A stretch of DNA of 64,000 nucleotides from an uncultured Clostridia bacterium (GTDB lineage: Bacteria; Bacillota; Clostridia; TANB77; CAG-508), in the NCBI GenBank assembly GCA_934119935.1, contig CAKOSX010000005.1, positions 4,933 through 68,932 on the forward strand. The letters run 5' to 3'. The notes beneath the pieces are model-generated. The model did not search any database. It worked only from the letters and a program-made list of their open reading frames with translations, and had not been told where the DNA came from. Shown piece after piece: positions 1 to 59,643 of the stretch (the first letter of the stretch is position 1; each line of letters begins with the position of its first letter). A program made the translations under genes and the position numbers.

Positions 1-823
1 GGCCTACTATTTTACCATACTCATTTAATTTATGTGTATACTCTTCTATCTCTTTTAACGTATTAATTCTGCTATAAATCTTGTCAAAGTAAGTCATACA
101 CATCATTTTTTGTGTTTCCATATATAGCTGTATTATCTTCTCTTCACTTCTTTTTTCTTCATTATTTTCATCCAGGATAGCATCAAAGTTTGATAAAATC
201 TTATTTGTATTTTCTTCGAATGTGTTATACAAATCATTTTCAAAATCTACTGTTCCATCTATCGCACTCTTAATAAGATTCTTCTCTCCTACAAAGAATA
301 ACAACTGTATTACTAAGCTCGTAAGATATGGATAATATTTATCATTTATTGTATAAATCGATATACTTTCATTATTCTTCCTATGTGGATTTTCTCCAAT
401 AGCTTTAGAAGCAATGTATTGGGTAACTGCTTCATTAAGTCCTAGACAATATATTTTAAATTCCGCAAAGTTACAAACCCCTATTCTTTGCTCACTTCCA
501 TCAAACTTTCTAAAATTTTGAAGATAATGAATACATTCTTGAATAACCTTCTCATCAATTTTGGCTATGTCAAACTTTTCGTCAAAATACAACGTATTAT
601 TAGGGTAAAAATACACAACATTTCCAAATTTAGGTGCAACTTGAGCATAACTCATATTGCAATTATAAATTCGCATATATAATTCATTATAAGAATCTCC
701 AAGCTCGTGTATGTTGTCAGCTAACTTCTCGGCAACAACCTTAGCTATATAATTCGTTTCATTAAACTCAAACTTTCTAGTTGGAATAATTCCAAGCACA
801 TTTAAACTTTTCTCTATATTCAT
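1..823 (-). CDS. hypothetical protein, truncated by the window edge (N-terminal ~274 codons present)
   Basis: Manual minus-strand translation from the ATG at 823 (MNIEKSLNVLGIIPTRKFEF...) stays open to position 1. It is absent from the ORF track because no stop lies in the window. No family recognised. Confidence 0.5.
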   Translation of the reverse strand, partial: MNIEKSLNVLGIIPTRKFEFNETNYIAKVVAEKLADNIHELGDSYNELYMRIYNCNMSYAQVAPKFGNVVYFYPNNTLYFDEKFDIAKIDEKVIQECIHYLQNFRKFDGSEQRIGVCNFAEFKIYCLGLNEAVTQYIASKAIGENPHRKNNESISIYTINDKYYPYLTSLVIQLLFFVGEKNLIKSAIDGTVDFENDLYNTFEENTNKILSNFDAILDENNEEKRSEEKIIQLYMETQKMMCMTYFDKIYSRINTLKEIEEYTHKLNEYGKIVG

Positions 824-920
824 AATCTTCCCTTATAATACATTTTTCTTTATTATATACTATATTACGGTAAAATTATATTGCATTTTTATTAAATTTA
901 TATTACAATTTTATTTCATA

Positions 921-1030
921 TACATTTTAGGGACGGAGAAAAAAATGTACATTTTAATAGAATTAATATATACTGTACATTTTTTTCTCCGTCCCCGAAT
1001 TGTACCGAATTGTACACTAATTGTACAAAC
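921..1030. repeat. Family-A palindromic repeat pair with a short loop (GGGACGGAGAAAAAAATGTACA ... TGTACATTTTTTTCTCCGTCCCC), followed by three AATTGTAC sub-repeats
   Basis: The inverted copies were read directly at 930-952 and 974-996. The same motif recurs at 9249, 42051, 50578/50793, 62271/62455 and 63013. Confidence 0.85.
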
Positions 1031-1058
1031 AAAAAAGACGAGGCTTTCCTCGTCTTTT
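1031..1058 (-). terminator. rho-independent terminator downstream of rny
   Basis: Hairpin GACGAGG/CCTCGTC, followed on the minus strand by a T-run. It lies 20 nt after the rny stop. Confidence 0.8.
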
Positions 1059-1078
1059 AAATTTATTTGTTTTTTAAT

Positions 1079-2620
1079 TTATTTTGCGTAGTCTACAACT
1101 CTTGTTTCTCTTATGATGTTTACTTTTATTTGTCCTGGATATTCCATTTCTTCTTCTACTTTCTTAGCAACATCTCTTGCAAGAATTGTCATATCTGCAT
1201 CTGAAATTTGCTCTGGTTTTACAACTATTCTAACTTCACGACCAGCTTGAATTGCAAATGATTTTTCAACTCCTTTGAATGAGTCTGCAATTGATTCTAG
1301 TTTTTCCAAACGCTTGATGTAATTTTCAAGTGTTTCTCTTCTAGCTCCAGGTCTTGAAGCAGATATTGCATCGGCTGCTGCTACTAAAACAGCTTCTACT
1401 GTTTGTGGTTCTACGTCTCCATGGTGAGCCTCTACCGCATTTATTACTAATGGATTTTCTTTGTATTTCTTAAGAATATCTACACCAATTTGAACGTGAG
1501 TTCCTTCTACATCATGATCTAGTGACTTGCCAATATCATGTAATAATCCTGCTCTTCTTGCAAGTTTTGGGTCTAATCCTAATTCGTCTGCCATAATTCT
1601 TGCTAAGTTAGAAACTTCTATTGAATGGTTTAATACATTTTGACCATAGCTTGTTCTGTATTTTAATTTTCCTAGCAAGTTTACGATGTCTGGATGAAGT
1701 CCAATTACACCTGTTTCCATGCAGGCTCTTTCTCCTTCTTCCTTGATTGTTTCGGCGACTTCTTCTTTTGCCTTTTCAACCATTTCTTCGATTTTTGCTG
1801 GGTGGATTCTTCCATCTTCCATCAATTTTTCAAGAGCTATTCTTGCAATTTCTCTTCTTAATGCATCAAATCCAGATATTACTACTGCTTCTGGTGTATC
1901 ATCAATTATTAAGTCTACTCCTGTTAAAGTCTCTAATGTACGGATATTTCTTCCTTCTCTTCCTATTATTCTACCTTTCATTTCATCATTTGGTAGTGGA
2001 ACTATAGATACAGTTGTTTCTGCTGTATGGTCTGCCGCACATTTTTGAATAGCATATCCAATTACTTCTCTTGCATTTTTTATAGACTCTTCTTTAACCT
2101 TATTTTCTGCAGCCTTTATTAAGTTTGCTTTCTCTAAAGTTAATTGCTTGTCCATATCTGAAAGTAATTGATTTTTTGCTTCTTCCTTAGATAATCCTGA
2201 AATTCTTTGAAGCTCTTGCATTTGCTTGTCCAAAGTTTTTGATATTTCTTGTTTCTTATTTTCAAGCTCTTGCTTCTTGTTTTCGATTTCTTGTTCCTTT
2301 CTCTCAATGTGCTCCATTTTGTTTTCAAGATTTTCCTCTTTTTGTAATAATCTTCTTTCTTGTTGTTGTACTTCGCTTCTTCTTTCTCTAATCTCGTTGT
2401 CAAGATCTTTTCTACTGTTCATGATCTCTTCTTTAGCCTTAAAAATTTCTTCCTTCTTTTTGTTTTCGGCTTCTTTTTGTGCAAGGTTAATTATTTTTTT
2501 TGCCTCTTCCTCTGCACTCCCTAATTTTGATTCTGCTACTTTTTTTCTTATTGCCATACCTACAAAGGTAAAAATGATTGCTGAGACTAGAAAAATGGCG
2601 ATATAAATTACAATTTGCAT
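1079..2620 (-). CDS. rny: ribonuclease Y
   Basis: N-terminal membrane helix, long Lys/Glu coiled coil, KH region ([12 protein letters not shown]) and HD domain (LLHDIGK, EAHHGD). Confidence 0.95.
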
Positions 2621-2927
2621 AATCTAACACCTCTTTCTATTAAATTTTCAATGTGCATAAATATATATCTAATACTCTCTCTAAATATATAAATTTTATT
2701 TAATTATCTATCTATAATTTTTATATTAGCTATACTTTACATATACTATTTTATATGTATTATTGACAACTGTCAAGTATTTTTTGTAAAAGTATAATTA
2801 TAGCCTTTCAAAAAAATTACCATTTTTTTCAACATTTTTAACGCTTATTTATAACTTTATCTGTTGTGTCACATATAAAAAAGATGGTTACTATTTGTAC
2901 TGAACCCAAAAAGTTGGACAGTATAAA

Positions 2928-3749
2928 TTAGGCTACTAACTCGGAATGTTCTCTGTATTGAACAGGGGACATTCCTTTTAGTTTGCTCTTAATTCTTCTG
3001 TTATTATAATATTCTATATATTCAATTATATTATTTTCTAATTCTTCTATATTTTTATACTCTTTTTCTTTTATATAATAGAGCTCTGATTTTAATATTC
3101 CAAAAAAGTTCTCTGCACATGCATTATCTAAACAATTTCCTTTTCTTGACATACTTTGCCTAATACCCTTTTGTTCTAATAAATATTGATATTGTTTCAT
3201 TTGATACTGCCATCCCTGATCAGAATGTAATATTAAATTGGTATTATCTGGTATTTTATTAAATGCTTTTTTTAACATATCTACTACTTGATTAAATACT
3301 GGATGTCGAGATAAATTAAAGCTTATTACTTCACCGTTAAACAAATCTACTATTGGTGATAAATAAAGTTTATCATTATTAACTTTAAATTCCGTTACAT
3401 CTGTAGCCCATTTTTGGTTTGGCTTATCTGCCTTAAACTCTCTTTTTAATAAATTATCTGCTATTTTTCCTATTGTTCCTTGATATGAATTATATCTTCT
3501 TTTTGGTCTTTGAATGCTTTGTAATCCCATTATTTGCATTATTCTTGCAACTGTCTTATGGTTTATTATATAGCCACGATTTCTCATTTCTAATGTTATT
3601 CTTCTATAACCATAACGTCCTTTATTTTCATTAAATATAGATAAAATTTCGTCTTTTTCTGCCTTATATTTATCTTTTTTCTTCATTTTTTTTAGATTAT
3701 AATAGAATGTACTTCTTGGTATTTCTGCTAATTTTAATAATTCTCTCAA
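2928..3749 (-). CDS. IS3-family transposase OrfB (DDE integrase core), probably made as an OrfAB fusion
   Basis: rve-type core (WATDVTEF..., HSDQGWQY, NACAENFF). The frame stays open upstream (VIVVDELRHKYS) into the orfA overlap. Confidence 0.9.
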   Translation of the reverse strand: MRELLKLAEIPRSTFYYNLKKMKKKDKYKAEKDEILSIFNENKGRYGYRRITLEMRNRGYIINHKTVARIMQIMGLQSIQRPKRRYNSYQGTIGKIADNLLKREFKADKPNQKWATDVTEFKVNNDKLYLSPIVDLFNGEVISFNLSRHPVFNQVVDMLKKAFNKIPDNTNLILHSDQGWQYQMKQYQYLLEQKGIRQSMSRKGNCLDNACAENFFGILKSELYYIKEKEYKNIEELENNIIEYIEYYNNRRIKSKLKGMSPVQYREHSELVA

Positions 3750-7345: not shown

Positions 7346-8191
7346 CTATTTTATATATATATTTGGATCTACATTTTCGCCATCTTTCTTAATTTCAAAA
7401 TGGATATGCGTGTTATCTGCAATTTCAAATCTTGCTGTATTTCCAACAGTTGCTATGGTTTGCCCTTGCTCAACTTGCTCCCCAACACTTATAAATTCGG
7501 CTGTTAGCAAATTAGAATATATACTTTCAAATCCATTTTCATGTTCAATTACAACTGTAAGTCCGAATCTTGGATCATTTTTTATCGATTTAATAGTTCC
7601 ATTAGCCGAAGCTTTTACTATATCTGTTTTTTGAGCAGCATAGTCAATTCCAAGGTGCGTGGTCCATTCGTCCAAGGTTGCTGAATACACCAGATTATCT
7701 TTTGAATAGTCTTTTAATTTTTCTCCTTCAACAGGTTGTATAAAAGTAGGATCTTTTGTTTTCTCGCCTTCGTCTGCATTTTGATTTTCTGATATATTAA
7801 CTTTCTCTGTGTTACTTTGTTCTGTTTTTTCTGCATTCTTAGAAGTTTCTTTTTTATTTTCCAAATTGCTTGTATTAACAGCCATCTTGTTTGTTAAGCT
7901 TTCATTATTTTCTTGTTTTGTAGTATCAATTGAATTTGATAATTCGTTTACAGTTTTACCAATTGAGCTACTTGTAGATTCAGTGTTTCCAATTATGTTC
8001 ATCATATTTTTGTCTGATGATGACGCAATTTTTTGAGTATTGTTTATTTGTTTTGCCTGTCCTGCCATTCTTCCGCTATACAATACATACGCCATCACAA
8101 AGGCAATAACAGCAATTATTGCTATAACTCCAAAATAAATAAAACCTACATTCTTGTTCGCCTCTGTATCTCTTCTGCCTCTTCTATTCAT
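7346..8191 (-). CDS. membrane-anchored M23/LytM-domain protein, SpoIIQ-like
   Basis: N-terminal TM segment plus a C-terminal M23 domain (HLGIDY, HIHFE). It sits next to spoIID, as in C. difficile. Start set at MNRRGRR, which has an AAGGAGG SD; the ORF-track start at 8251 is an upstream extension. Confidence 0.6.
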   Translation of the reverse strand: MNRRGRRDTEANKNVGFIYFGVIAIIAVIAFVMAYVLYSGRMAGQAKQINNTQKIASSSDKNMMNIIGNTESTSSSIGKTVNELSNSIDTTKQENNESLTNKMAVNTSNLENKKETSKNAEKTEQSNTEKVNISENQNADEGEKTKDPTFIQPVEGEKLKDYSKDNLVYSATLDEWTTHLGIDYAAQKTDIVKASANGTIKSIKNDPRFGLTVVIEHENGFESIYSNLLTAEFISVGEQVEQGQTIATVGNTARFEIADNTHIHFEIKKDGENVDPNIYIK

Positions 8192-8299
8192 ACTTTTCCT
8201 CCTTATTTTTTTATTAATAAAAGTATTTCCATTTTTTCTAAATATATACATAATATTAATTTCAAAATAAGGATACTCTTCTAAATTTTATTATTATAT

Positions 8300-9313
8300 T
8301 TATAATGTAGTAATTTCCACTCCCGTATAGTAATGTTTTATAATCTGTTCATAATTGTTCCCTTGTTTAGCCATGCTATCAGCACCGGTTTGACTCATTC
8401 CAACTCCATGGCCATATCCCGTTACCGAGAATTTTATTTCACTCTCATTTATTTCTGTTTTAAAGTTAGCAGACCTTAATCCTAATAAATTTCTTACTTC
8501 AACTCCGGATAATTCTAAGTTTCCAATTTTTATTGTTTTTACTCTATTTCCTTGAGTATATTCTAGTACCTTTATACAATCACTTTCATCATAATTTATT
8601 GTAAATTCAGGATGTTTTTCTTTCATCTTATTTTCGAATTCTTGCTTGGTAAATACTGCTTCAGATTGATATTGGCTGTATCCCTCTTCACCCGCAGTCT
8701 CCACACTTTGCAAATATGGTAGATTGGCTCCACCCCACACATTTGAAACTTCTTCGGTTTTTCCCCCGCTATTCGAATGAAAAAAAGCATCTATCACTTC
8801 TCCATTATATGTTACCACTTTTCTTGAAGTTGAATTTACAGCTTCTTTTATTTTATCCCAATTACTTTCTCTTTCACTTTCTTCCCATCTTGCGAACCTG
8901 TCTTCCTTCGAAATCCAAGCCTGACAACACGCAGAATTATCACAAATATCTGCTCCTTCATGTTTATTAGAGTTATGTTCAATAATATACCTTGTATATG
9001 TTCTTGCAACAACAGCTTGAGCCTTCAATGCTTCTTCTTCAAAATTTGCTGGCATCTCAGCAGACACAACGCCTAATAAGTATTCTTCCATTTTCATCTC
9101 TTCTATACTGTTATCTTTTGTATGCAAAATCTTCACTGTTAAATCTTCGCCCAATAGGGACGCCCCCTTTTGAGCGAAGTTTTCTTCATCATTTTGTTGC
9201 ACATTATTGCTGATTTCTTTGTCTTTTTCAAGTTCTCCGACTCGTTTTTTGTACAATTTTTTCTCCGTCCCCAAACTGTACAAATTGTCCAGTAAATATA
9301 ATCGGTATGGCAA
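8300..9313 (-). CDS. spoIID: stage II sporulation protein D (SpoIID/LytB lytic transglycosylase domain); 5' end disturbed by repeats
   Basis: VVARTYT, HSNSGGKTE and GHGVGMSQTGA motifs. The track start is a TTG, and the membrane anchor is in another frame (see 9228-9359). Confidence 0.85.
   Translation of the reverse strand: MPYRLYLLDNLYSLGTEKKLYKKRVGELEKDKEISNNVQQNDEENFAQKGASLLGEDLTVKILHTKDNSIEEMKMEEYLLGVVSAEMPANFEEEALKAQAVVARTYTRYIIEHNSNKHEGADICDNSACCQAWISKEDRFARWEESERESNWDKIKEAVNSTSRKVVTYNGEVIDAFFHSNSGGKTEEVSNVWGGANLPYLQSVETAGEEGYSQYQSEAVFTKQEFENKMKEKHPEFTINYDESDCIKVLEYTQGNRVKTIKIGNLELSGVEVRNLLGLRSANFKTEINESEIKFSVTGYGHGVGMSQTGADSMAKQGNNYEQIIKHYYTGVEITTL
9145..9179. repeat. Family-C hairpin repeat copy inside the spoIID linker coding region
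   Basis: CTTCGCCCAATAGGGACGCCCCCTTTTGAGCGAAG closely matches the reverse complement of the dnaK-dnaJ terminator hairpin at 52084-52116. Confidence 0.7.
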
Positions 9314-20115: not shown

Positions 20116-20394
20116 TCATTCGCAATAAAAGAGTCGTATCTTCTGAATAGATGGTACGACTCTTTTAGGCATTTTTATCGTTTTCCTGACGTCAGGAAAA
20201 TGTTCAGTTACGCTAATACCAGTGTTTTCACAGGCAATCATTGCTTTATTTATTACCTTTTCAAAGTTCTCCCATTTATTATACTCTAATATCTTTTGTA
20301 ATTCTCTTCCATACCAATACTCAATTCAATTCTCGTCAATGTGTCTAGTGTCTTCAAACGTTTGATTTTCTCTCTTCGCATTTCTCATCCCCAT
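20116..20394 (-). pseudogene. DinD-like (DNA-damage-inducible protein D) 5' fragment with an in-frame TGA and a truncated C-terminus
   Basis: Manual translation gives MGMRNAKRENQTFEDTRHIDEN*IEYWYGRELQKILEYNKWENFEKVINKAMIACENTGISVTEHFPDV... This matches the conserved DinD N-terminal block, then diverges and stops. Confidence 0.6.
20130..20166 (+). terminator. hairpin terminator after the ROK-like gene
   Basis: AGAGTCGTA/TACGACTCT stem followed by TTT. Confidence 0.6.
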
Positions 20395-20535
20395 CACTCC
20401 ATTTACATTTAATGGAATTAAATATAAAACGTTTGTTTGTGTTTGTCAAGCATTTTTTATATTTTCCTAAAAAAAAAGTTGTATTCTTCTAAATAGATAA
20501 TACAACCATTTTTCACTTAATACATATATAAATTT

Positions 20536-20620
20536 TGGTGGAGATGAAGGGAGTTGCCAAGCCGCGTCGGGAAAATTGTCCACTGGACAATTTTCTATTC
20601 CTCCTTTTCGACTCCCTAGA
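20536..20620 (-). repeat. distal att-like unit: 21-nt tmRNA 3'-end core plus a 64-nt conserved arm
   Basis: TGGTGGAGATGAAGGGAGTTG, then GCCAAGCCGCGTCGGGAAAATTGTCCACTGGACAATTTTC... Nearly identical to 25063-25147. Confidence 0.8.
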
Positions 20621-20926
20621 ACTTTATATTATTCATTTAAGTTATATATAAAGTTCTAGTTTTTCTTTCTGTTCTGGTGCCATCGAGGTAGTTATCTACA
20701 ACTTTTTGGCTCTCATAACGATTGAGACAAATATCAATCAATTTATATATAAATTAACAGATTTTTTTATAAAAATCAAGAAATTTTATAAAAAAATCTT
20801 GCGAAATTTTGTTTCTTTTATATTGATTAATTTTAAATTCTATGTTATACTAGCTGACATAGGAAATGATGATAAGCAGATGTGGTTTTGCCACCAATTA
20901 TACGAAATATCGTAAGAGAGGTGGTG

Positions 20927-21046
20927 ATGTTTATGGTTAAAGTGATACTATTTTTTATAATATCATTTATGTTATCTTTAACATTAAACGTTGCCTTGAC
21001 AGCAGTTCTGTATAAGAACTGGGTTGATAAGCAACTACATAAATAA
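20927..21046 (+). CDS. small hydrophobic peptide, type I toxin-like (39 aa, or 37 aa from the second ATG)
   Basis: GAGGTGGTG SD. MFMVKVILFFIISFMLSLTLNVALTAVLYKNWVDKQLHK has a single TM helix and a basic tail. A paralogue lies at 59271-59372. Confidence 0.6.
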   Translation: MFMVKVILFFIISFMLSLTLNVALTAVLYKNWVDKQLHK

Positions 21047-21049
21047 AAA

Positions 21050-21135
21050 AGCTCACATCTGTAACTTTGGCGAGTTAGGTGTGAGTTTTTACAACTAATT
21101 TCGGCAAAACCACGTTTGTGGGTTTGTCATTTCCT
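21050..21135 (-). ncRNA. predicted antisense (antitoxin-like) RNA convergent with the peptide gene
   Basis: Minus-strand promoter TTGACT-17-TATAAT (21170-21142). The start lies near AGGAAATGAC, and the RNA shares the bidirectional hairpin at 21050-21085. Confidence 0.45.
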
Positions 21136-21190
21136 ATATTTATTATACACAGATATTTAAGAAAAGTCAAATAAAATTTCGCAATTAAAA

Positions 21191-21646
21191 TTATTTACTA
21201 AAAAATCTTATTATAAATTTCCATACTTTTTTATACCATTTAATATTATTTATTTCTATTAAATCTAATTTTTGCTCTTGTTCGGTAGCATCCAAAATAA
21301 TTTTTTTCTTATTATTCTTAAAAATATTATCAGAATTATATCTTTCTTTCTTTTTTTCTTCTAATTGCATTCTATCATAATTTTGTTTAGTAATAATTTT
21401 TTCTTTTTGTAATTCTGTAGCCCAATAATCTCTAAATAAAATCGCAATAATTGCTTTTGCAGTTTTTGATACATTTTGTTCATCTAAAGTTTTATTTGGA
21501 TTATATTTAAATATATATTCTTTATTGTGATTTGTTTCGAAAAGCTCTATTTTAGAATTTGGTATTTTTTCATAATCTTCTTTGGAAATGTATTTTAAAA
21601 TTTCTAAAACTTCACTATAAGCATTTGCATATTCAACACTTACCAT
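21191..21646 (-). CDS. hypothetical protein (151 aa), translationally coupled to the upstream 787-aa gene
   Basis: The ATG lies 1 nt after the upstream stop. N-terminal helical region and Lys-rich C-terminal half. No family recognised. Confidence 0.6.
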   Translation of the reverse strand: MVSVEYANAYSEVLEILKYISKEDYEKIPNSKIELFETNHNKEYIFKYNPNKTLDEQNVSKTAKAIIAILFRDYWATELQKEKIITKQNYDRMQLEEKKKERYNSDNIFKNNKKKIILDATEQEQKLDLIEINNIKWYKKVWKFIIRFFSK

Positions 21647-21647
21647 T

Positions 21648-24011
21648 TTATCCTCCTATAGTTGCTTGATTTTCCTTTGTTTTATCTAAATCTCTTTCTT
21701 GACTTTCAATTGTTCTTTCAGTTTCATCTATTAAAATAGTATCAGATATTTCATCAATAACTTGTTTTCCTAATTTTTGTCCATTTGTTAATTGACTATC
21801 TTTAAATCTATCTTTACACATCTCTATAAATTCTAAATGAGTAAAAATCTTTTTATAGTCCATTCCAAACTCTTGCAACCACTTCTGAATTCTTTCTTTG
21901 TTTTCTTCTGTTGTAATTATTCCAACAAATCTGTCATCATCTTCCTTAAAATCAATTGATTGAACTCCTCCTGGTACTTCAGAGCCAAAATTTTCTAAAC
22001 CTTTATAAATCTCATCTTTTTTTGGATAAAATGCAAATATAGCTCCATAAGGTCTGGCTGAGTCGATTCCTGGGTCTGCAAATTCAACAGGAACATGAAT
22101 ATCATATTTATTAGCAACAGCAATTTGTATAGCAAACGATTTGAAATCTACACCTCTTTCTTCAGGTGTTTTTAGTCCACCAGTCTTTAATATTTCATAT
22201 ATTGCTGCAATATCATTATTCCCGTGAAATACCATAGGAATGCCATCTGGTATAATTTCAGCAACTTGCTTGCTAAATGACTGACGAATTCTTTTCCTTT
22301 CTTCTAAATCTTCTGGAATATCTTCTCTCATATATGAAAGTTGATTTTCTAGCTCATTTATTCTTCTTTTTATCTTTTCAACTCGACTACCATATGCCTC
22401 TGCTTTTCTTGTTTCATTATTCTTTATCGCTTCATCATACATTGTTTTATATTTTGTTAAACTATTTTTTTGACTTTCTAAAATTTTTCTAACATACATT
22501 TTTTTATTTTCAAGCATAATTGTTTGATTCCTTTCTAAGCCAGAGTATAAGCCTGCATACCTTGTTTGAGCTATCTCTCTTTGCAATCCTTGTTCATAAG
22601 TTTTTCTATTAGTTCTTTCTAAATTATGATCTAATGTATCACTTATAGACCAATATGTTATTCCATCTAACTGTACTCCAGTTTCTTCAATAGCTTTTGA
22701 AATTTCATCCATTCTCATTGATTTAAACTCTGCTATACTTCCAATAGTAATACCACTTTTACTTATTTTACTATTAATAAGTTCTACCAAATCCTGCTCA
22801 GAACGTATTTTTCCATTTTCATCAAACATAAATCTTTCTGGTAAACACATATCAAATTCTGTTATTTGAGTTCTAATTCCTAATTGTTCTAATCTTTTAA
22901 AGGCCTCAAAACATTGTCTAATATCATCTGTATTTTGTGTCATCTCAATATGCATCTGTGTACCAATTGTATCAATTAATCCAGGAGCTAGTCCATTAAT
23001 TCGAGATAATTGTTCTATTACAACTTGTCTTCTTTCAGGATTTTCCAAAAACGGTTCATTATATACATACGTTACTCCATCTGGTTTGTTTTCTAATGCA
23101 TACTGAAAAATGCTAACTAATTCTTCGTTGGAAATTCCGTATAATTCTTGCCACATATTTCTGTATGGTTCATCAAAAGAAATTATCTCATTAAGCAAAT
23201 CTACAGAACATATTACTCCTTTTCCATTTATCTTATGCTCCTCATTATATTTTGAAATAAAATCTATAGATTTCTTTACATATTTTTGCAGTTCTCCTAA
23301 AACATATTCTTTTTGCTTGCCTATTAAATGTTCTTCCATAGTTTGTTTATCTAATAATGTATGATATCTTGCATACATTCCATTTTTATAGCAAAAATCT
23401 AGACCCCTTTGAGCATAATAAAAATCATATTTTTCCATATTTGGTATATGTTCATCATACATTTTTTTTGTAACATCATAATATCTTCCTGCTCCTATTA
23501 GAAGAGTATTATGATTAGATAAAATATCATTTAATCCGGATAATTCTTCATAAGTTATGCTTGTCATTTGATCTCTTTCTGTTCCAATAAATCTATGAGC
23601 TTTTTCTGTAAAAATATCATAACTTTCAGGGTGTTCTGCTTTTAATTTTTTCTTAATACCTTCATAACCATTATTTTGAAATACTGAAATGTATGAATCT
23701 ACTTCATCAGCAGTAATTCCTGAATGCTTTAATGCTAATTTCAAAACACTTCTTCTGTTTTTAATACTTTGTTCCATTGATACTAATGTGCTCTTATATT
23801 GTTCGACAAGCATTCTTTTTATATCTTCAATATCGTTATCATTCCAACTAGTTAAATCTTCTTCAGAAATATTTAACTGTGAACAATTAATTGCAAAATC
23901 TTTTAATTCTTCTATATTTTTACATTGAATTATACTTAATAATTCAATAGTTTCTGAATTCAAATAAATTCCATTTATTTGACTCTCTAACTTTAATGAA
24001 AATTCTTGCAC
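21648..24011 (-). CDS. large multidomain island protein: GH10-like TIM-barrel region, coiled coil, and a possible ADP-ribosyltransferase/Tpt1-like C-terminal domain
   Basis: Blocks YDFYYAQRGLDFCYKNGMYARYHTLLD, VDLLNEI, YVYNEPF, IDTIGTQMHI, QITEFDM and GITYWSISD parallel the GH10 signature blocks. The C-terminal segment reads VFHGNNDIAAIYEILKTGGL. No signal peptide. Confidence 0.55.
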   Translation of the reverse strand: MQEFSLKLESQINGIYLNSETIELLSIIQCKNIEELKDFAINCSQLNISEEDLTSWNDNDIEDIKRMLVEQYKSTLVSMEQSIKNRRSVLKLALKHSGITADEVDSYISVFQNNGYEGIKKKLKAEHPESYDIFTEKAHRFIGTERDQMTSITYEELSGLNDILSNHNTLLIGAGRYYDVTKKMYDEHIPNMEKYDFYYAQRGLDFCYKNGMYARYHTLLDKQTMEEHLIGKQKEYVLGELQKYVKKSIDFISKYNEEHKINGKGVICSVDLLNEIISFDEPYRNMWQELYGISNEELVSIFQYALENKPDGVTYVYNEPFLENPERRQVVIEQLSRINGLAPGLIDTIGTQMHIEMTQNTDDIRQCFEAFKRLEQLGIRTQITEFDMCLPERFMFDENGKIRSEQDLVELINSKISKSGITIGSIAEFKSMRMDEISKAIEETGVQLDGITYWSISDTLDHNLERTNRKTYEQGLQREIAQTRYAGLYSGLERNQTIMLENKKMYVRKILESQKNSLTKYKTMYDEAIKNNETRKAEAYGSRVEKIKRRINELENQLSYMREDIPEDLEERKRIRQSFSKQVAEIIPDGIPMVFHGNNDIAAIYEILKTGGLKTPEERGVDFKSFAIQIAVANKYDIHVPVEFADPGIDSARPYGAIFAFYPKKDEIYKGLENFGSEVPGGVQSIDFKEDDDRFVGIITTEENKERIQKWLQEFGMDYKKIFTHLEFIEMCKDRFKDSQLTNGQKLGKQVIDEISDTILIDETERTIESQERDLDKTKENQATIGG

Positions 24012-24086
24012 TTTTTCACCTTCTATTGTTTAATTCAAAAATATTATATCAATAACTTTTAATTTTTACAATGATTTAGAACATTT

Positions 24087-24383
24087 TTAAGTATAATTAA
24101 TATTGTTAAACAAATATAATGCTACTTTATTTTGCTCTGTTGTTTCCATTTCCATAAGTTTAGCCATTGCAAACATTACAATCTTATATTTAGCAAAGTT
24201 TCTAAGTGTAATTCTATACTCTTCATCAATATCTTTTAGCATAGTATCAAATTTTTCATAATTGTCTTTAGTATTATATGACCATTTACTTTGACTCATA
24301 CATATTGCTAGTCTTAATTTATCTTTTATATCCATGTCATTTATCCTATTTATTAAATATTTTATTTTTTCACTTTCCAACAT
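24087..24383 (-). CDS. hypothetical protein (98 aa)
   Basis: ORF only. Same strand as, and upstream of, the 787-aa gene. Confidence 0.4.
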   Translation of the reverse strand: MLESEKIKYLINRINDMDIKDKLRLAICMSQSKWSYNTKDNYEKFDTMLKDIDEEYRITLRNFAKYKIVMFAMAKLMEMETTEQNKVALYLFNNINYT

Positions 24384-24391
24384 TGCACTCC

Positions 24392-24948
24392 TTACTTTAA
24401 TTCCATATTATTTTTCTTTTTAACATTAGTATTATTAAGTTCATCTGCTGGTTTAATTTTTCTTGATATATCATTAACAATTCGATTATCATTGTCATCA
24501 AAAATACCATTTTTATATAGGTCATCGCTAACATATTTATACTTTTCATCTTTATCAAATCCAATTTTATTTTGGAAGTATTTAATTAACTTATGCCAAA
24601 ATCCTTTGAATTTTTGTAGCTCTGTTTTAAGCTTTGCTTTTTCAGTTTGTAATTTATTAATAATCTTATCTTTAGTAGATAATTCGCTTTTCAAACTGAT
24701 AATTTGATCTTTTTAGATAAATTAGAAATATAAACATCATTTGAATAATTGAAAACTAACAAATTAATGTTTTTTACAATTACCTTATGTGGTTCGATAT
24801 AAGATAAATTGGTCTTTTCAATTTTTCTAATACTACCTTTTATAAAAGTAGGAGTTACTTTTGAAAACTCACATATAAATTCTAGTCTTTGCTTTAAACT
24901 TTCCTCAAATTGTATTTCCTGTTTAATTATCTTCATTACAGACACCAT
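24392..24948 (-). pseudogene. frameshifted island ORF (85-aa and 100-aa pieces)
   Basis: The two ORFs abut in different frames around an A5 run (TCTAAAAAG). A one-nucleotide change would join ...YISNLSKK to DQIISLKSELSTKDK..., a continuous coiled coil. Confidence 0.45.
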
Positions 24949-25062
24949 CCTTTCGTTTGGATGATTTTTATATTGTTTTTAAACAACAAAAAAATCAACC
25001 AGATTTATTTTCTGATTGATTTTTGTATCTATCTGTTTTATTAGTTCGAACAGATACGTCAT

Positions 25063-25147
25063 TGGTGGAGATGAGGGGAGTTGCCGAGCCGCGTCGGGAA
25101 AATTGTCCACTGGACAATTTTCTATTCCTCCTTTTCAACTCCCTAGA
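25063..25147 (-). repeat. proximal att-like unit: 21-nt tmRNA 3'-end core plus a 64-nt conserved arm
   Basis: TGGTGGAGATGAGGGGAGTTG, then GCCGAGCCGCGTCGGGAAAATTGTCCACTGGACAATTTTC... It lies only 51 nt from the true tmRNA end. Confidence 0.8.
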
Positions 25148-25198
25148 CCAACTATTTTTCAGCCTAGTTATTTTTTGTCAAAATTCTAATTTTTATTC

Positions 25199-25560
25199 TG
25201 GTGGAGATGAGGGGAGTTGAACCCCTGTCCAATATTCTTTCCATATACGTTTCTCCGAGTGCAGTTTGTTATTTAATTTTCCCTGTAAAATTCATTAACA
25301 AACAAACGGATTTTACAAGTAACCATTTGTTTTACCTACTGTTTTAATGGCTAAAACAGTGTTGTTATCCTACTAATTGACGCCTTATCTAAGACCGTAG
25401 GCCTTCTTAGTAAGACGGGCCGCCTAAGCTTAGGCAGCGTATGCTAATTCTGTATTATCAGCGTTTATTTTTATTTCTGCTTTTTTATAGTGGCCGAAGC
25501 AGCCATCCACTACTCGCTACATATACTTCTGGGATACTGTCGAAAACCAAATACATCCCC
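25199..25560 (-). ncRNA. ssrA: transfer-messenger RNA (tmRNA)
   Basis: The 5' end GGGGATGTATTTGGTTTTCGACAG pairs with the 3' end CATCTCCACCA. T-arm AGGGGTTCAACTCCCCT. Tag reading frame GCT GAT AAT ACA GAA TTA GCA TAC GCT GCC TAA encodes ADNTELAYAA. Confidence 0.93.
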
Positions 25561-25679
25561 ATATGTATTTATTATACTCTAATTTCACATTAAAGTCCAC
25601 TATTTTTTTATACTATACATAATTTTCGAAATAATTTACTTTATAGTTAACTGGCACACCATAAAAGTACATTTATAAT

Positions 25680-59567: not shown

Positions 59568-59643
59568 TGGAGCTAACAACCGGAATTGAACCGGTGACCT
59601 CAGCCTTACCAAGGCTGCGCTCTACCTACTGAGCTATGATAGC
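59568..59643 (-). tRNA. trnT: tRNA-Thr (anticodon GGU), encoded CCA end
   Basis: Manual cloverleaf: anticodon arm CAGCC-TTGGTAA-GGCTG, T-arm CCGGTTCAATTCCGG. One T-T mismatch in the acceptor stem. Confidence 0.85.

Follow-up and report, generated by a model that had tools for sequence, protein, structure and literature searches.

Behind ssrA, the transfer-messenger RNA (tmRNA) gene, of an uncultured Clostridia bacterium (contig CAKOSX010000005.1; 64 kb were analysed, and this whole stretch is called the window below), two unrelated things are stacked: the relic of an integrative and mobilisable element (IME) of a type that carries a large serine recombinase (LSR) and a MobV relaxase, and two copies of a non-coding mini-element of about 135 bp. 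The mini-elements are best explained as members of a separate, seemingly undescribed family of miniature, non-autonomous integrative elements, distinct from the island. We put the probability of this explanation as a whole at roughly 0.7. The anatomy of the locus, the empty sites, the lost genes, the distribution of the mini-element family and its covariation are matters of direct observation. Compared loci and contigs are referred to by L-numbers.

The 3' side of ssrA

Read in the orientation of the tmRNA, the locus runs ssrA, spacer B with its arm and core 2, the IME relic, spacer A with its arm and core 3, and then chromosome. Its parts are these:

25199..25560, minus strand: tmRNA gene (ssrA), by ARAGORN and Rfam RF00023 (169.7 bits)
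25148..25198, minus strand: spacer B of mini-element B, 51 nt from the tmRNA CCA to the unit, in the position of terminator-bearing spacers elsewhere
25063..25147, minus strand: unit 2, comprising its arm (25084-25147) and core 2 (25063-25083)
20680..25062, minus strand: decayed LSR/MobV IME body of 4.38 kb, delimited by blastn against the empty site L015, the copies at other sites L031, L034 and L037, and the intact L040 and L161
20621..20674, minus strand: spacer A of mini-element A, which lies directly 3' of the tmRNA gene in Clostridium sp. CAG:245
20536..20620, minus strand: unit 3, comprising its arm (20557-20620) and core 3 (20536-20556)

The last 21 nt of the tmRNA (CAACTCCCCTCATCTCCACCA) are found exactly at the gene end (25199-25219, core 1) and at 25063-25083 (core 2), and again, with one mismatch, at 20536-20556 (core 3, CAACTCCCTTCATCTCCACCA), giving spacings of 136 bp and 4527 bp; shuffled sequence yielded no match (0/100 shuffles). 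The initial annotation had reported three such copies, 136 bp and ~4.5 kb apart, with a near-identical 64-nt arm before each of the extra two, and both observations hold: 20535-20620 and 25062-25147 form an 86-nt direct repeat, 97% identical, each copy of which ends in an extra core. The arm of unit 2 consists, in order, of an inverted repeat (GGGAGTTG), an A-rich/GGAGG segment, a palindrome and CCGACGCGGCTCGG; what had been described as a 10-bp inverted repeat in the arm is a perfect palindrome of 25 nt, GAAAATTGTCCA-C-TGGACAATTTTC, with arms of 12 nt. Applied to the window, a covariance model finds unit 2 (101.6 bits), unit 3 (98.1 bits) and no third. Unit 3 shows three differences from unit 2 and a single mismatch in its inverted-repeat/core stem, and we therefore take it to be the older copy. 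The GC content of the island is ~0.26, against ~0.32-0.33 in the flanks, and the tmRNA encodes the tag peptide ADNTELAYAA (ARAGORN).

A decayed serine recombinase element

The closest genome found, that of Clostridium sp. CAG:245 (locus L015), has flanks ~93% identical to those of the window and holds the empty ssrA site that had been sought in relatives; the island is a horizontal acquisition. The order in L015 is flank, core, arm, spacer A, tmRNA, with no island. Window 20300-20679 corresponds to L015 4340-4721 (93.7%), the homology breaking 5 nt into the tmRNA end (TGGTG, plus strand), and window 25062-25577 aligns to the tmRNA and to the same L015 unit that also matches 20300-20679. CAG:245 is therefore without 20680-25061 and without one unit.

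The island body starts ATGACGTATCTGTTCGAAC directly after the CCA of core 2 and ends ...GTTGTAGATAACTACCTCGATGG(CACCA). Its two boundaries are copies of a 5-nt repeat, CACCA (25063-25067 and 20675-20679), the second of which is common to the target. The 787-aa and 151-aa gene pair that the island carries is found directly after the tRNA-Tyr CCA in L031 and L032 (89% nucleotide identity), behind a tRNA-Tyr unit in L034 (96%) and behind a tRNA-Leu(taa) unit in L037 (97%). In every copy the left end of the body reads CCA followed by ATGAC(G/T)T.TCTGTTCGAAC, and the right end, where kept, reads ...GTTGTAGATA.CTAC.TCG.TGGCACCA and ends GGCACCA. These ends are constant behind tmRNA, tRNA-Tyr and tRNA-Leu, with related ends behind tRNA-Gln and an empty site in L015. 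Because the same ends recur at other sites, the mobile segment extends from 25062 down to 20680 and is bounded by CACCA, not by the 21-nt core; the 21-nt tmRNA fragments near the island belong to the mini-elements, and the body itself is bounded by the 5-nt identity.

Intact relatives show what the island once was. L040 encodes, in order, an 89-aa open reading frame (ORF), a 642-aa LSR (Pfam: Resolvase PF00239, 2e-33, and Recombinase PF07508, 2e-18), a 463-aa Mob_Pre relaxase (Pfam: 3e-14, domain at aa 48-217), a 100-aa ORF and the 787-aa and 151-aa proteins, whilst L039, at the same ROK/transketolase locus as the window, keeps a full relaxase and a TnpV-family gene. By blastn, window 24969-24696 matches L040 39-313 and window 24715-20707 matches L040 3713-7744; L040 positions 314-3712 (~3.4 kb) are absent from the window, with the deletion junction at ~24696-24715. 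No LSR homologue was found anywhere in the window with a related LSR as tblastn query, nor was a tyrosine integrase, for which the single query was one truncated tyrosine-integrase fragment, and Pfam, PADLOC and PHROGs found no recombinase, tyrosine integrases included, among the island ORFs. The earlier remark that no integrase is visible therefore stands. What survives of the IME backbone is as follows:

24990..25024, minus strand: intrinsic terminator at the IME left end, with a 14-bp stem and T-run, 40-70 nt past the CCA junction
24691..24948, minus strand: 85-aa ORF, homologous to the backbone's conserved first gene of 89 aa
24392..24694, minus strand: relic of a Mob_Pre (MobV) relaxase, C-terminal ~105 aa, by tblastn, blastn against L040 and Pfam on the L040 protein
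24087..24383, minus strand: 98-aa ORF, equivalent to the conserved '100-aa' backbone gene

The sole window match of the relaxase query (tblastn) is 24395-24709, which covers aa 359-463 of 463 at 90% identity, so the '100-aa ORF' of the window is the last 105 aa of the relaxase and the Mob_Pre domain has been deleted. A terminator of its own at the left end fits an element that parts a tRNA from the tRNA's terminator.

Members of this LSR/MobV family insert exactly after the CCA of tmRNA, tRNA-Tyr, tRNA-Gln or tRNA-Leu and share a backbone with cargo that differs among copies; the LSR is very common in gut metagenomes, one variant being present on more than 600 contigs. The intact L161 lies directly after the tmRNA CCA (...CTCCACCA joined to AAAACGAATCTGTTCGAAC; right end ...TTGGCACCA joined to AAAATACTC) and the intact L167 directly after the tRNA-Gln CCA (...CCCAGCCA joined to ATAACGAATCTG; right end ...ATGGAGCCA joined to TCTTG). 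In both, the right end (...GGCACCA or ...GGAGCCA) matches the last 5 nt of the target and no unit is near. The attP reconstructed by joining the right end of the IME to its left end reads ...CTCGATGGCACCA followed by ATGACGTATCTG... From the gene content of these relatives we infer that the LSR would have acted as the island's integrase.

LSR-type elements also lie directly after the CCA of a unit, in five contexts (the window, L034, L048, L037 and L062/L102, the LSR of the last being 43% identical), and directly after a genuine tRNA or tmRNA where there is no unit (L031, L161 and L167). CCA-end insertion is common in the clade, as a recombinase-less 1.9-kb insert in L117 too sits exactly after the CCA of tRNA-Gly, ending ...CTGCTCCA.

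The initial annotation had offered two alternatives for the island, a decayed element or a satellite mobilised in trans. The first is borne out by the loss of the recombinase; mobilisation in trans is unlikely, since many metagenome contigs carry the identical deleted island at this very locus, and the island is for that reason a fixed relic rather than an active satellite. The segment 20680-25062 is thus a decayed LSR/MobV IME and not a working member of its family.

Two further observations concern the island and its surroundings. In L034, the region homologous to window 24090-24771 is replaced by 7403-8797, which encodes an ISNCY-family transposase (NCBIfam, 2e-113); this was considered as the island's enzyme and rejected, being an insertion sequence that has entered the island. 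Secondly, between a ROK-like regulator and the ssrA flank, CAG:245 (L015 3568-4339) and L039 (10637-11464) hold a gene of 275-278 aa, the L039 copy of which matches Pfam Bro-N. The window keeps only 132 bp there (20168-20299), which points to a second deletion adjoining the island.

A family of mini-elements behind tRNA genes

Units were collected from genome, viral and metagenome collections by a palindrome search followed by a search with an 18-nt arm motif, giving 98 instances with 80 distinct sequences; the mini-element occurs in gut Clostridia related to the one studied here. Where the upstream region is on the contig, units mostly lie 13-55 nt 3' of a tRNA or tmRNA gene and in the same orientation; about a quarter are too close to a contig end for an upstream gene to show, and four lie farther away (0.5-3.6 kb), behind inserted DNA. 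The host genes (tmRNA and the tRNAs Met, Tyr, Leu(tag), Leu(taa), Leu(caa), Arg(tct), Arg(cct), Phe, Gly(ccc), Cys and Thr(ggt)) number at least 12, and the core is specific to each locus. By far most scorable units have as their core the last 21 nt of their own tRNA, from T-loop position 56 to CCA, and in all tRNA types the core is preceded by an invariant CCCGACGYGGCTYG.

The architecture is constant. The unit is 85 nt long in 76 of the 80 distinct sequences, arms at different tRNAs are closely alike, and arm, core and spacer together make a mini-element of ~133-141 bp. Tandem units have a period of ~137-141 nt and occur in up to three copies; truncated units were seen in L034 (the distal copy) and L159. 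The spacer between gene and unit holds a canonical terminator behind most tRNAs, the terminator not being clear in the two spacers of the window and in the short tRNA-Arg(cct) spacers. A literature search on the hairpin sequence returned nothing relevant.

These findings alter the earlier picture of the unit next to ssrA in three respects. It had been regarded as a first element reduced to about 115 bp, and is instead no random remnant but an example of a discrete type of ~135 bp. The question had been raised whether the arm always sits beside integrases that target ssrA; it is found at 12 or more tRNA genes, with no recombinase beside the units examined. The view that its occurrence at many unrelated loci would make it a generic repeat is right to the extent that the arm belongs to a repeat family spread over all these genes, and falls short in that the family is still linked to tRNAs.

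Fold and covariation

An inverted repeat of 8-10 nt, situated upstream of the unit's conserved middle, has the reverse-complement sequence of the core's first 8-10 nt. Inverted repeat and core start read GGGAGTTG and CAACTCCC at tmRNA, ATGGATTCG and CGAATCCAT at tRNA-Tyr, GGGACTTG and CAAGTCCC at tRNA-Leu, and CTGGAATCG and CGATTCCAG at tRNA-Phe. Even a polymorphism in the tmRNA T-loop is tracked by the inverted repeat (CAAC with GTTG, CGAC with GTCG). The arm folds into a branched hairpin whose basal stem pairs the inverted repeat with the core start. Among 28 diverse units, 94.4% of cells are paired, and cells with changes on both sides number 69 as against 24.9 +/- 3.8 in shuffles (0/500); the signal collapses when the partners are slid. 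RNAalifold, unprompted, recovered the basal stem and the hairpin and added two 3-bp stems, which vary only from G-C to G-U, in the tRNA-sense strand.

It might be argued that the units are neutral by-products, that is, tRNA 3' fragments left by past integrations and excisions and gene-converted by the neighbouring tRNA gene, with neither mechanism nor function. Several types of element do hit the tRNA 3' ends of this clade, and right ends that are short and tRNA-like degrade starting at their 5' side. Such an origin would not give a constant architecture, however, with 85 nt in 76 of 80 distinct units, nor an inverted repeat that follows the tRNA as far as the tmRNA T-loop polymorphism, and conversion by a tRNA gene cannot set the inverted repeat. 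We consider it very improbable.

At the other extreme, the 85-nt unit may be a programmable attachment site recognised by its structure. The branched hairpin would form as a single strand (DNA in conjugation or replication, or RNA), its basal stem would mimic the T-loop/T-stem duplex of the tRNA gene that is targeted, and a trans-acting recombinase would pick one of a dozen or more tRNA genes by this nucleic-acid match and not by protein-DNA recognition. The logic would resemble, by analogy, that of integron attC sites, CTX attP and the guides of IS200/IS605 and IS110, but would be new. We offer this as speculation, and think it doubtful.

Several look-alikes of the arm were considered. A match to the Rfam tmRNA_permuted model was rejected, being sub-threshold (32 bits) and driven by the tmRNA end, as was Rfam RF02604 (BASRCI153, a Brucella small RNA), against which units score 21.8-30.3 bits with a gathering threshold of 137 and over the central hairpin only; on alpha-proteobacterial-like contigs RF02604 scores 50-52 bits. 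A hammerhead or other ribozyme core, a T-box and a coding arm were dropped by eye, there being no conserved core motifs and no conserved start codon, and covarying changes in the hairpin would alter codons. The central hairpin module (GGA.YAGAAA, a stem with GTCCAGTGGAC, then TTTCCCCG; window 20562-20601 and 25089-25128) resembles multi-copy intergenic alpha-proteobacterial DNA and GC-rich IMG/VR contigs (L021-L026, L002/L007 and L169/L170). Covariance-model matches outside the family score 30-38 bits over model positions 15-64 and so extend beyond the palindrome; there are also hits on plasmids. An exact match to the palindrome occurs in a 'proteobacterium' metagenome-assembled genome and in RUG14645; an exact 24-nt palindrome match is weak evidence of kinship because it needs only 12 independent bases, and part of the resemblance can be chance between A/T-flanked palindromes.

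Probable insertion or loss, and exchange, of mini-elements

The tRNA-Thr gene of the window (59568-59643) has no unit. Its orthologue in CAG:245 (L014) is 98.6% identical up to the junction and then has 133 extra nt, comprising a spacer with terminator, the inverted repeat, the arm and the core, together with a 24-nt direct repeat (TTCTGGAGCTAACAACGGGAAT). This pair is what site-specific insertion of a miniature element, or its precise loss, would leave behind. There are also chimeric units, in which the inverted repeat is of one tRNA type and the core of another (L041, L048, L056, L113, L139 and L144); one example has an Arg-type repeat and a Tyr-type core followed by an IME. Chimeras of this sort imply exchange near the arm/core boundary or within arms, between units of different loci. 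Our favoured account of how the mini-elements move is site-specific recombination by an enzyme acting in trans at the arm/core (T-loop) boundary, although we would put this somewhat short of an even chance.

The units could instead be immobile modules maintained by the host behind its tRNAs, serving as a bidirectional terminator or insulator and as a decoy tRNA 3' end that absorbs CCA-targeting elements, or as a read-through structured RNA, with tandems arising by unequal crossing-over. Covarying stems would be expected of such modules; A- and T-tracts border the hairpin, as they would in a bidirectional terminator; the CCA of a unit is indeed followed by an LSR element in five contexts; and the window's distal unit has diverged, with three differences from unit 2, truncated units being seen elsewhere (the L034 distal copy and L159). 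The G-C to G-U variation of the two short stems in the tRNA-sense strand would also favour such modules, but the point is weak because the search pattern permitted only C/T at those two positions. Three findings speak for insertion: the clean presence or absence of 133 nt with a 24-nt direct repeat at tRNA-Thr of close relatives, the great likeness of arms at different tRNAs, and the arrival of the spacer with the insertion. Moreover, most units lie behind a terminator, so that transcription from the tRNA promoter should be low. Immobile modules thus seem to us unlikely.

No recombinase was found beside the units in L047, L061, L085, L117, L139 and L157, whose flanks hold a truncated tyrosine integrase, Mob genes of other elements and IME right ends. 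L139 (1354-2496) and L157 (3671-4814) carry a tyrosine-integrase-like ORF with a GLRRSE box and no HxxR...Y region, which reads through the unit and is cut off at its CCA; the 3.3-kb element there ends at a 51-nt tRNA-Arg 3' half, and the locus is composite and degraded.

The arm was also considered as a phage attP arm and this was rejected: the prophages in L013, L018 and L020, which lie inside tRNA-Thr(ggt), use a 51-nt identity from the anticodon loop and carry no arm. An arm variant is present on the prophage-flank contigs L018 and L020, outside the prophage. Because the prophages leave the downstream unit untouched, two integration systems use the same tRNA-Thr. The arm pattern found no match in phage records.

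Relationship between the island and the units

The initial annotation read the locus as tandem integration at ssrA by related elements. One part of this survives, in that the repeated cores mark separate insertion events; the island and the arm are not related elements, however, as bodies without an arm occur elsewhere. In its fullest form the alternative would have a tyrosine-type integrase insert two arm-sharing elements in tandem, crossing over within the 21-nt core; one of them would be the 4.5-kb island, made up of body, spacer A and arm, which would either have lost its integrase or be a satellite moved in trans. The island is indeed flanked by arm and core units in direct orientation, the order of unit, body, arm and core recurs behind tRNA-Tyr in L034, and a spacer and unit follow IME right ends in L039, L061 and L085 as they do in the window; chimeric units, too, indicate exchange at or near the arm/core boundary. 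This is hard to square with armless bodies at tRNA-Tyr (L031), tmRNA (L161) and tRNA-Gln (L167) that have the same ends and 5-9 nt of junction identity, or with arms that lack a body at 12 or more tRNAs. Furthermore, intact bodies encode a serine and not a tyrosine recombinase, and CAG:245 retains spacer A, arm and core directly behind ssrA. Such a tandem is, in our view, improbable.

With the island an IME relic beside separate mini-elements, the LSR would place the IME exactly at the ...NCCA of a tRNA-like 3' end, with ~5-9 nt shared between target and right end. The IME may have landed on the CCA of the first unit in a two-unit array. Alternatively, ssrA itself may have been the landing site, as in L161, and mini-element B may have joined later beside the gene, a history that fits the pristine state of unit 2 and the three substitutions in unit 3. 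A later internal deletion of ~3.4 kb then took out the recombinase together with the relaxase's catalytic part; with both gone, the island is an immobile, vertically inherited relic.

Several points weigh against this explanation. For the IME, the role of the LSR is drawn solely from gene linkage in relatives, neither a circle nor an attP junction was seen for the island, CACCA does not allow the crossover dinucleotide to be placed within it, and either order of landing (on the unit CCA, or on ssrA followed by mini-element B) fits. For the mini-elements, no recombinase is linked to the copies examined, a double-stranded circle of ~135 bp is a poor recombination substrate, and the arm is nearly absent from viral contigs, the intact 18-nt motif being found in one IMG/VR contig only. 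The presence or absence of a unit could come from precise deletion between the 21-24-nt repeats or from allelic replacement. Lastly, the search pattern fixed part of the arm, so that an ascertainment bias partly affects both the family's diversity and its C/T-only polymorphisms.

Cargo and toxin-antitoxin-like module

The remainder of the island comprises:

21648..24011, minus strand: 787-aa cargo protein with a GH10-like TIM-barrel region at aa 189-458
21191..21646, minus strand: 151-aa protein, always adjoining the 787-aa protein
20820..21170, both strands: candidate type I toxin-antitoxin-like module, with an ORF and convergent promoter-like sites

The 787-aa protein matches Pfam PF00331 (1.1e-20) and xylanases in PDB (1e-10), and no PADLOC or PHROG family; PADLOC and PHROGs gave no match for any island ORF. 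With the 151-aa protein it fills the IME's variable cargo slot, where other copies have a 2-hydroxyacid dehydrogenase and a 418-aa protein, and the pair is possibly a defence or competition module.

The toxin-antitoxin-like module noted earlier is present at ~20820-21170. A plus-strand promoter-like site at 20823-20851 (TTGATT-17-TATACT with TG) precedes a small hydrophobic ORF (20882-21046), which has no family match in Pfam or PHROGs, and a convergent minus-strand site lies at 21170-21142 (TTGACT-17-TATAAT, 11/12). L031, L039, L040 and L161 all have the module alongside the right end of the IME, whereas L037 lacks it. As judged from these sequence features, it is consistent with a type I toxin-antitoxin system.

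Significance

The island itself is an ordinary IME, and a dead one. Its family, which is widespread in gut Clostridia, inserts at the extreme ...NCCA end of several tRNA and tmRNA genes and supplies a terminator of its own. Of more use is the finding of the mini-element family: a non-coding insertion of ~135 bp at 12 or more tRNA species, with an inverted repeat matched to the local tRNA. Should this match be functional, base complementarity would set target choice in a very small element, which would bear on how integrative elements switch tRNA targets and possibly on programmable integration; if the units really are programmable sites, tRNA 3' ends would be platforms for cassette arrays. Extra copies of tRNA 3' ends also mislead island finders that use displaced tRNA fragments as boundaries, as happened to the initial annotation here.

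Related and analogous systems

The nearest described case is that of the ssrA islands of Dehalococcoides, where a serine recombinase, DsiB, is associated with a 20-bp repeat that starts midway along the T-loop and with tandem arrays (PMC3146451). A conserved 15-bp motif lies upstream of each repeat, and about half of the islands are without an integration module (PMC3146451). The general layout is shared: IMEs with a serine recombinase occupy the 3' end of ssrA, arrays are tandem, some members have no integrase, and the units likewise show a repeat of ~20 bp from T-loop to 3' end, an upstream motif and tandem copies. No DsiB-like module was found beside the units examined, the DsiB sequence itself not having been compared, and the LSR is likened to the Dehalococcoides recombinase by description only. 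There are four differences. The LSR element here joins at the CCA, sharing ~5-9 nt with the target, rather than in the T-loop; separate elements of ~135 bp account for the 21-nt repeats; the targets span 12 or more tRNA species instead of ssrA only; and the motif upstream is a 64-nt arm that folds and holds an inverted repeat complementary to the target, a feature not described for Dehalococcoides.

The clostridial mobilisable transposons of the Tn4451/Tn4453 type carry the LSR TnpX and the Mob/Pre relaxase TnpZ, and Tn4451 targets GA-centred sites that resemble its joint. Judged by gene content and Pfam domains only, the IME is like these in having an LSR, a Mob_Pre relaxase and small cargo, with few bases common to ends and target, and the TnpV-family gene of L039 recalls the Tn4451 type; unlike Tn4451, it targets the ...NCCA ends of tRNA and tmRNA genes.

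Islander-type islands use tyrosine integrases and target tRNA and tmRNA genes, with Williams's classes of sublocation within the gene (PMC4383910). As in these, a displaced 3' fragment of the target lies at the far end of each insertion, although the 21-nt fragments here go with the mini-elements and the island body has the 5-nt identity only; the identity block begins in the T-loop, and the insert restores the 3' end of the gene. No tyrosine integrase is found in the window or linked to the units, however, and the T-stem symmetry of a T-loop crossover is absent beside the core, the complement lying 55 nt away.

Miniature inverted-repeat transposable elements and cis-mobilisable elements share with the mini-elements their small size, lack of coding sequence, multiple copies, constant architecture and need for a trans-acting enzyme. 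The difference lies in the ends, which here are copied from, or matched to, each target tRNA, in place of constant terminal inverted repeats.

Integron attC and the attP(+) of CTX phage are folded single-strand recombination sites. The units recall them, by analogy only, in their covarying inverted repeats, their conserved bulged or branched middle and their arrays of short modules beside a fixed primary site. Unlike attC and CTX attP(+), the units have no link to IntI or Xer and no R-box consensus, and a single-stranded intermediate would be hypothetical; the sequence of their stem is that of the target gene.

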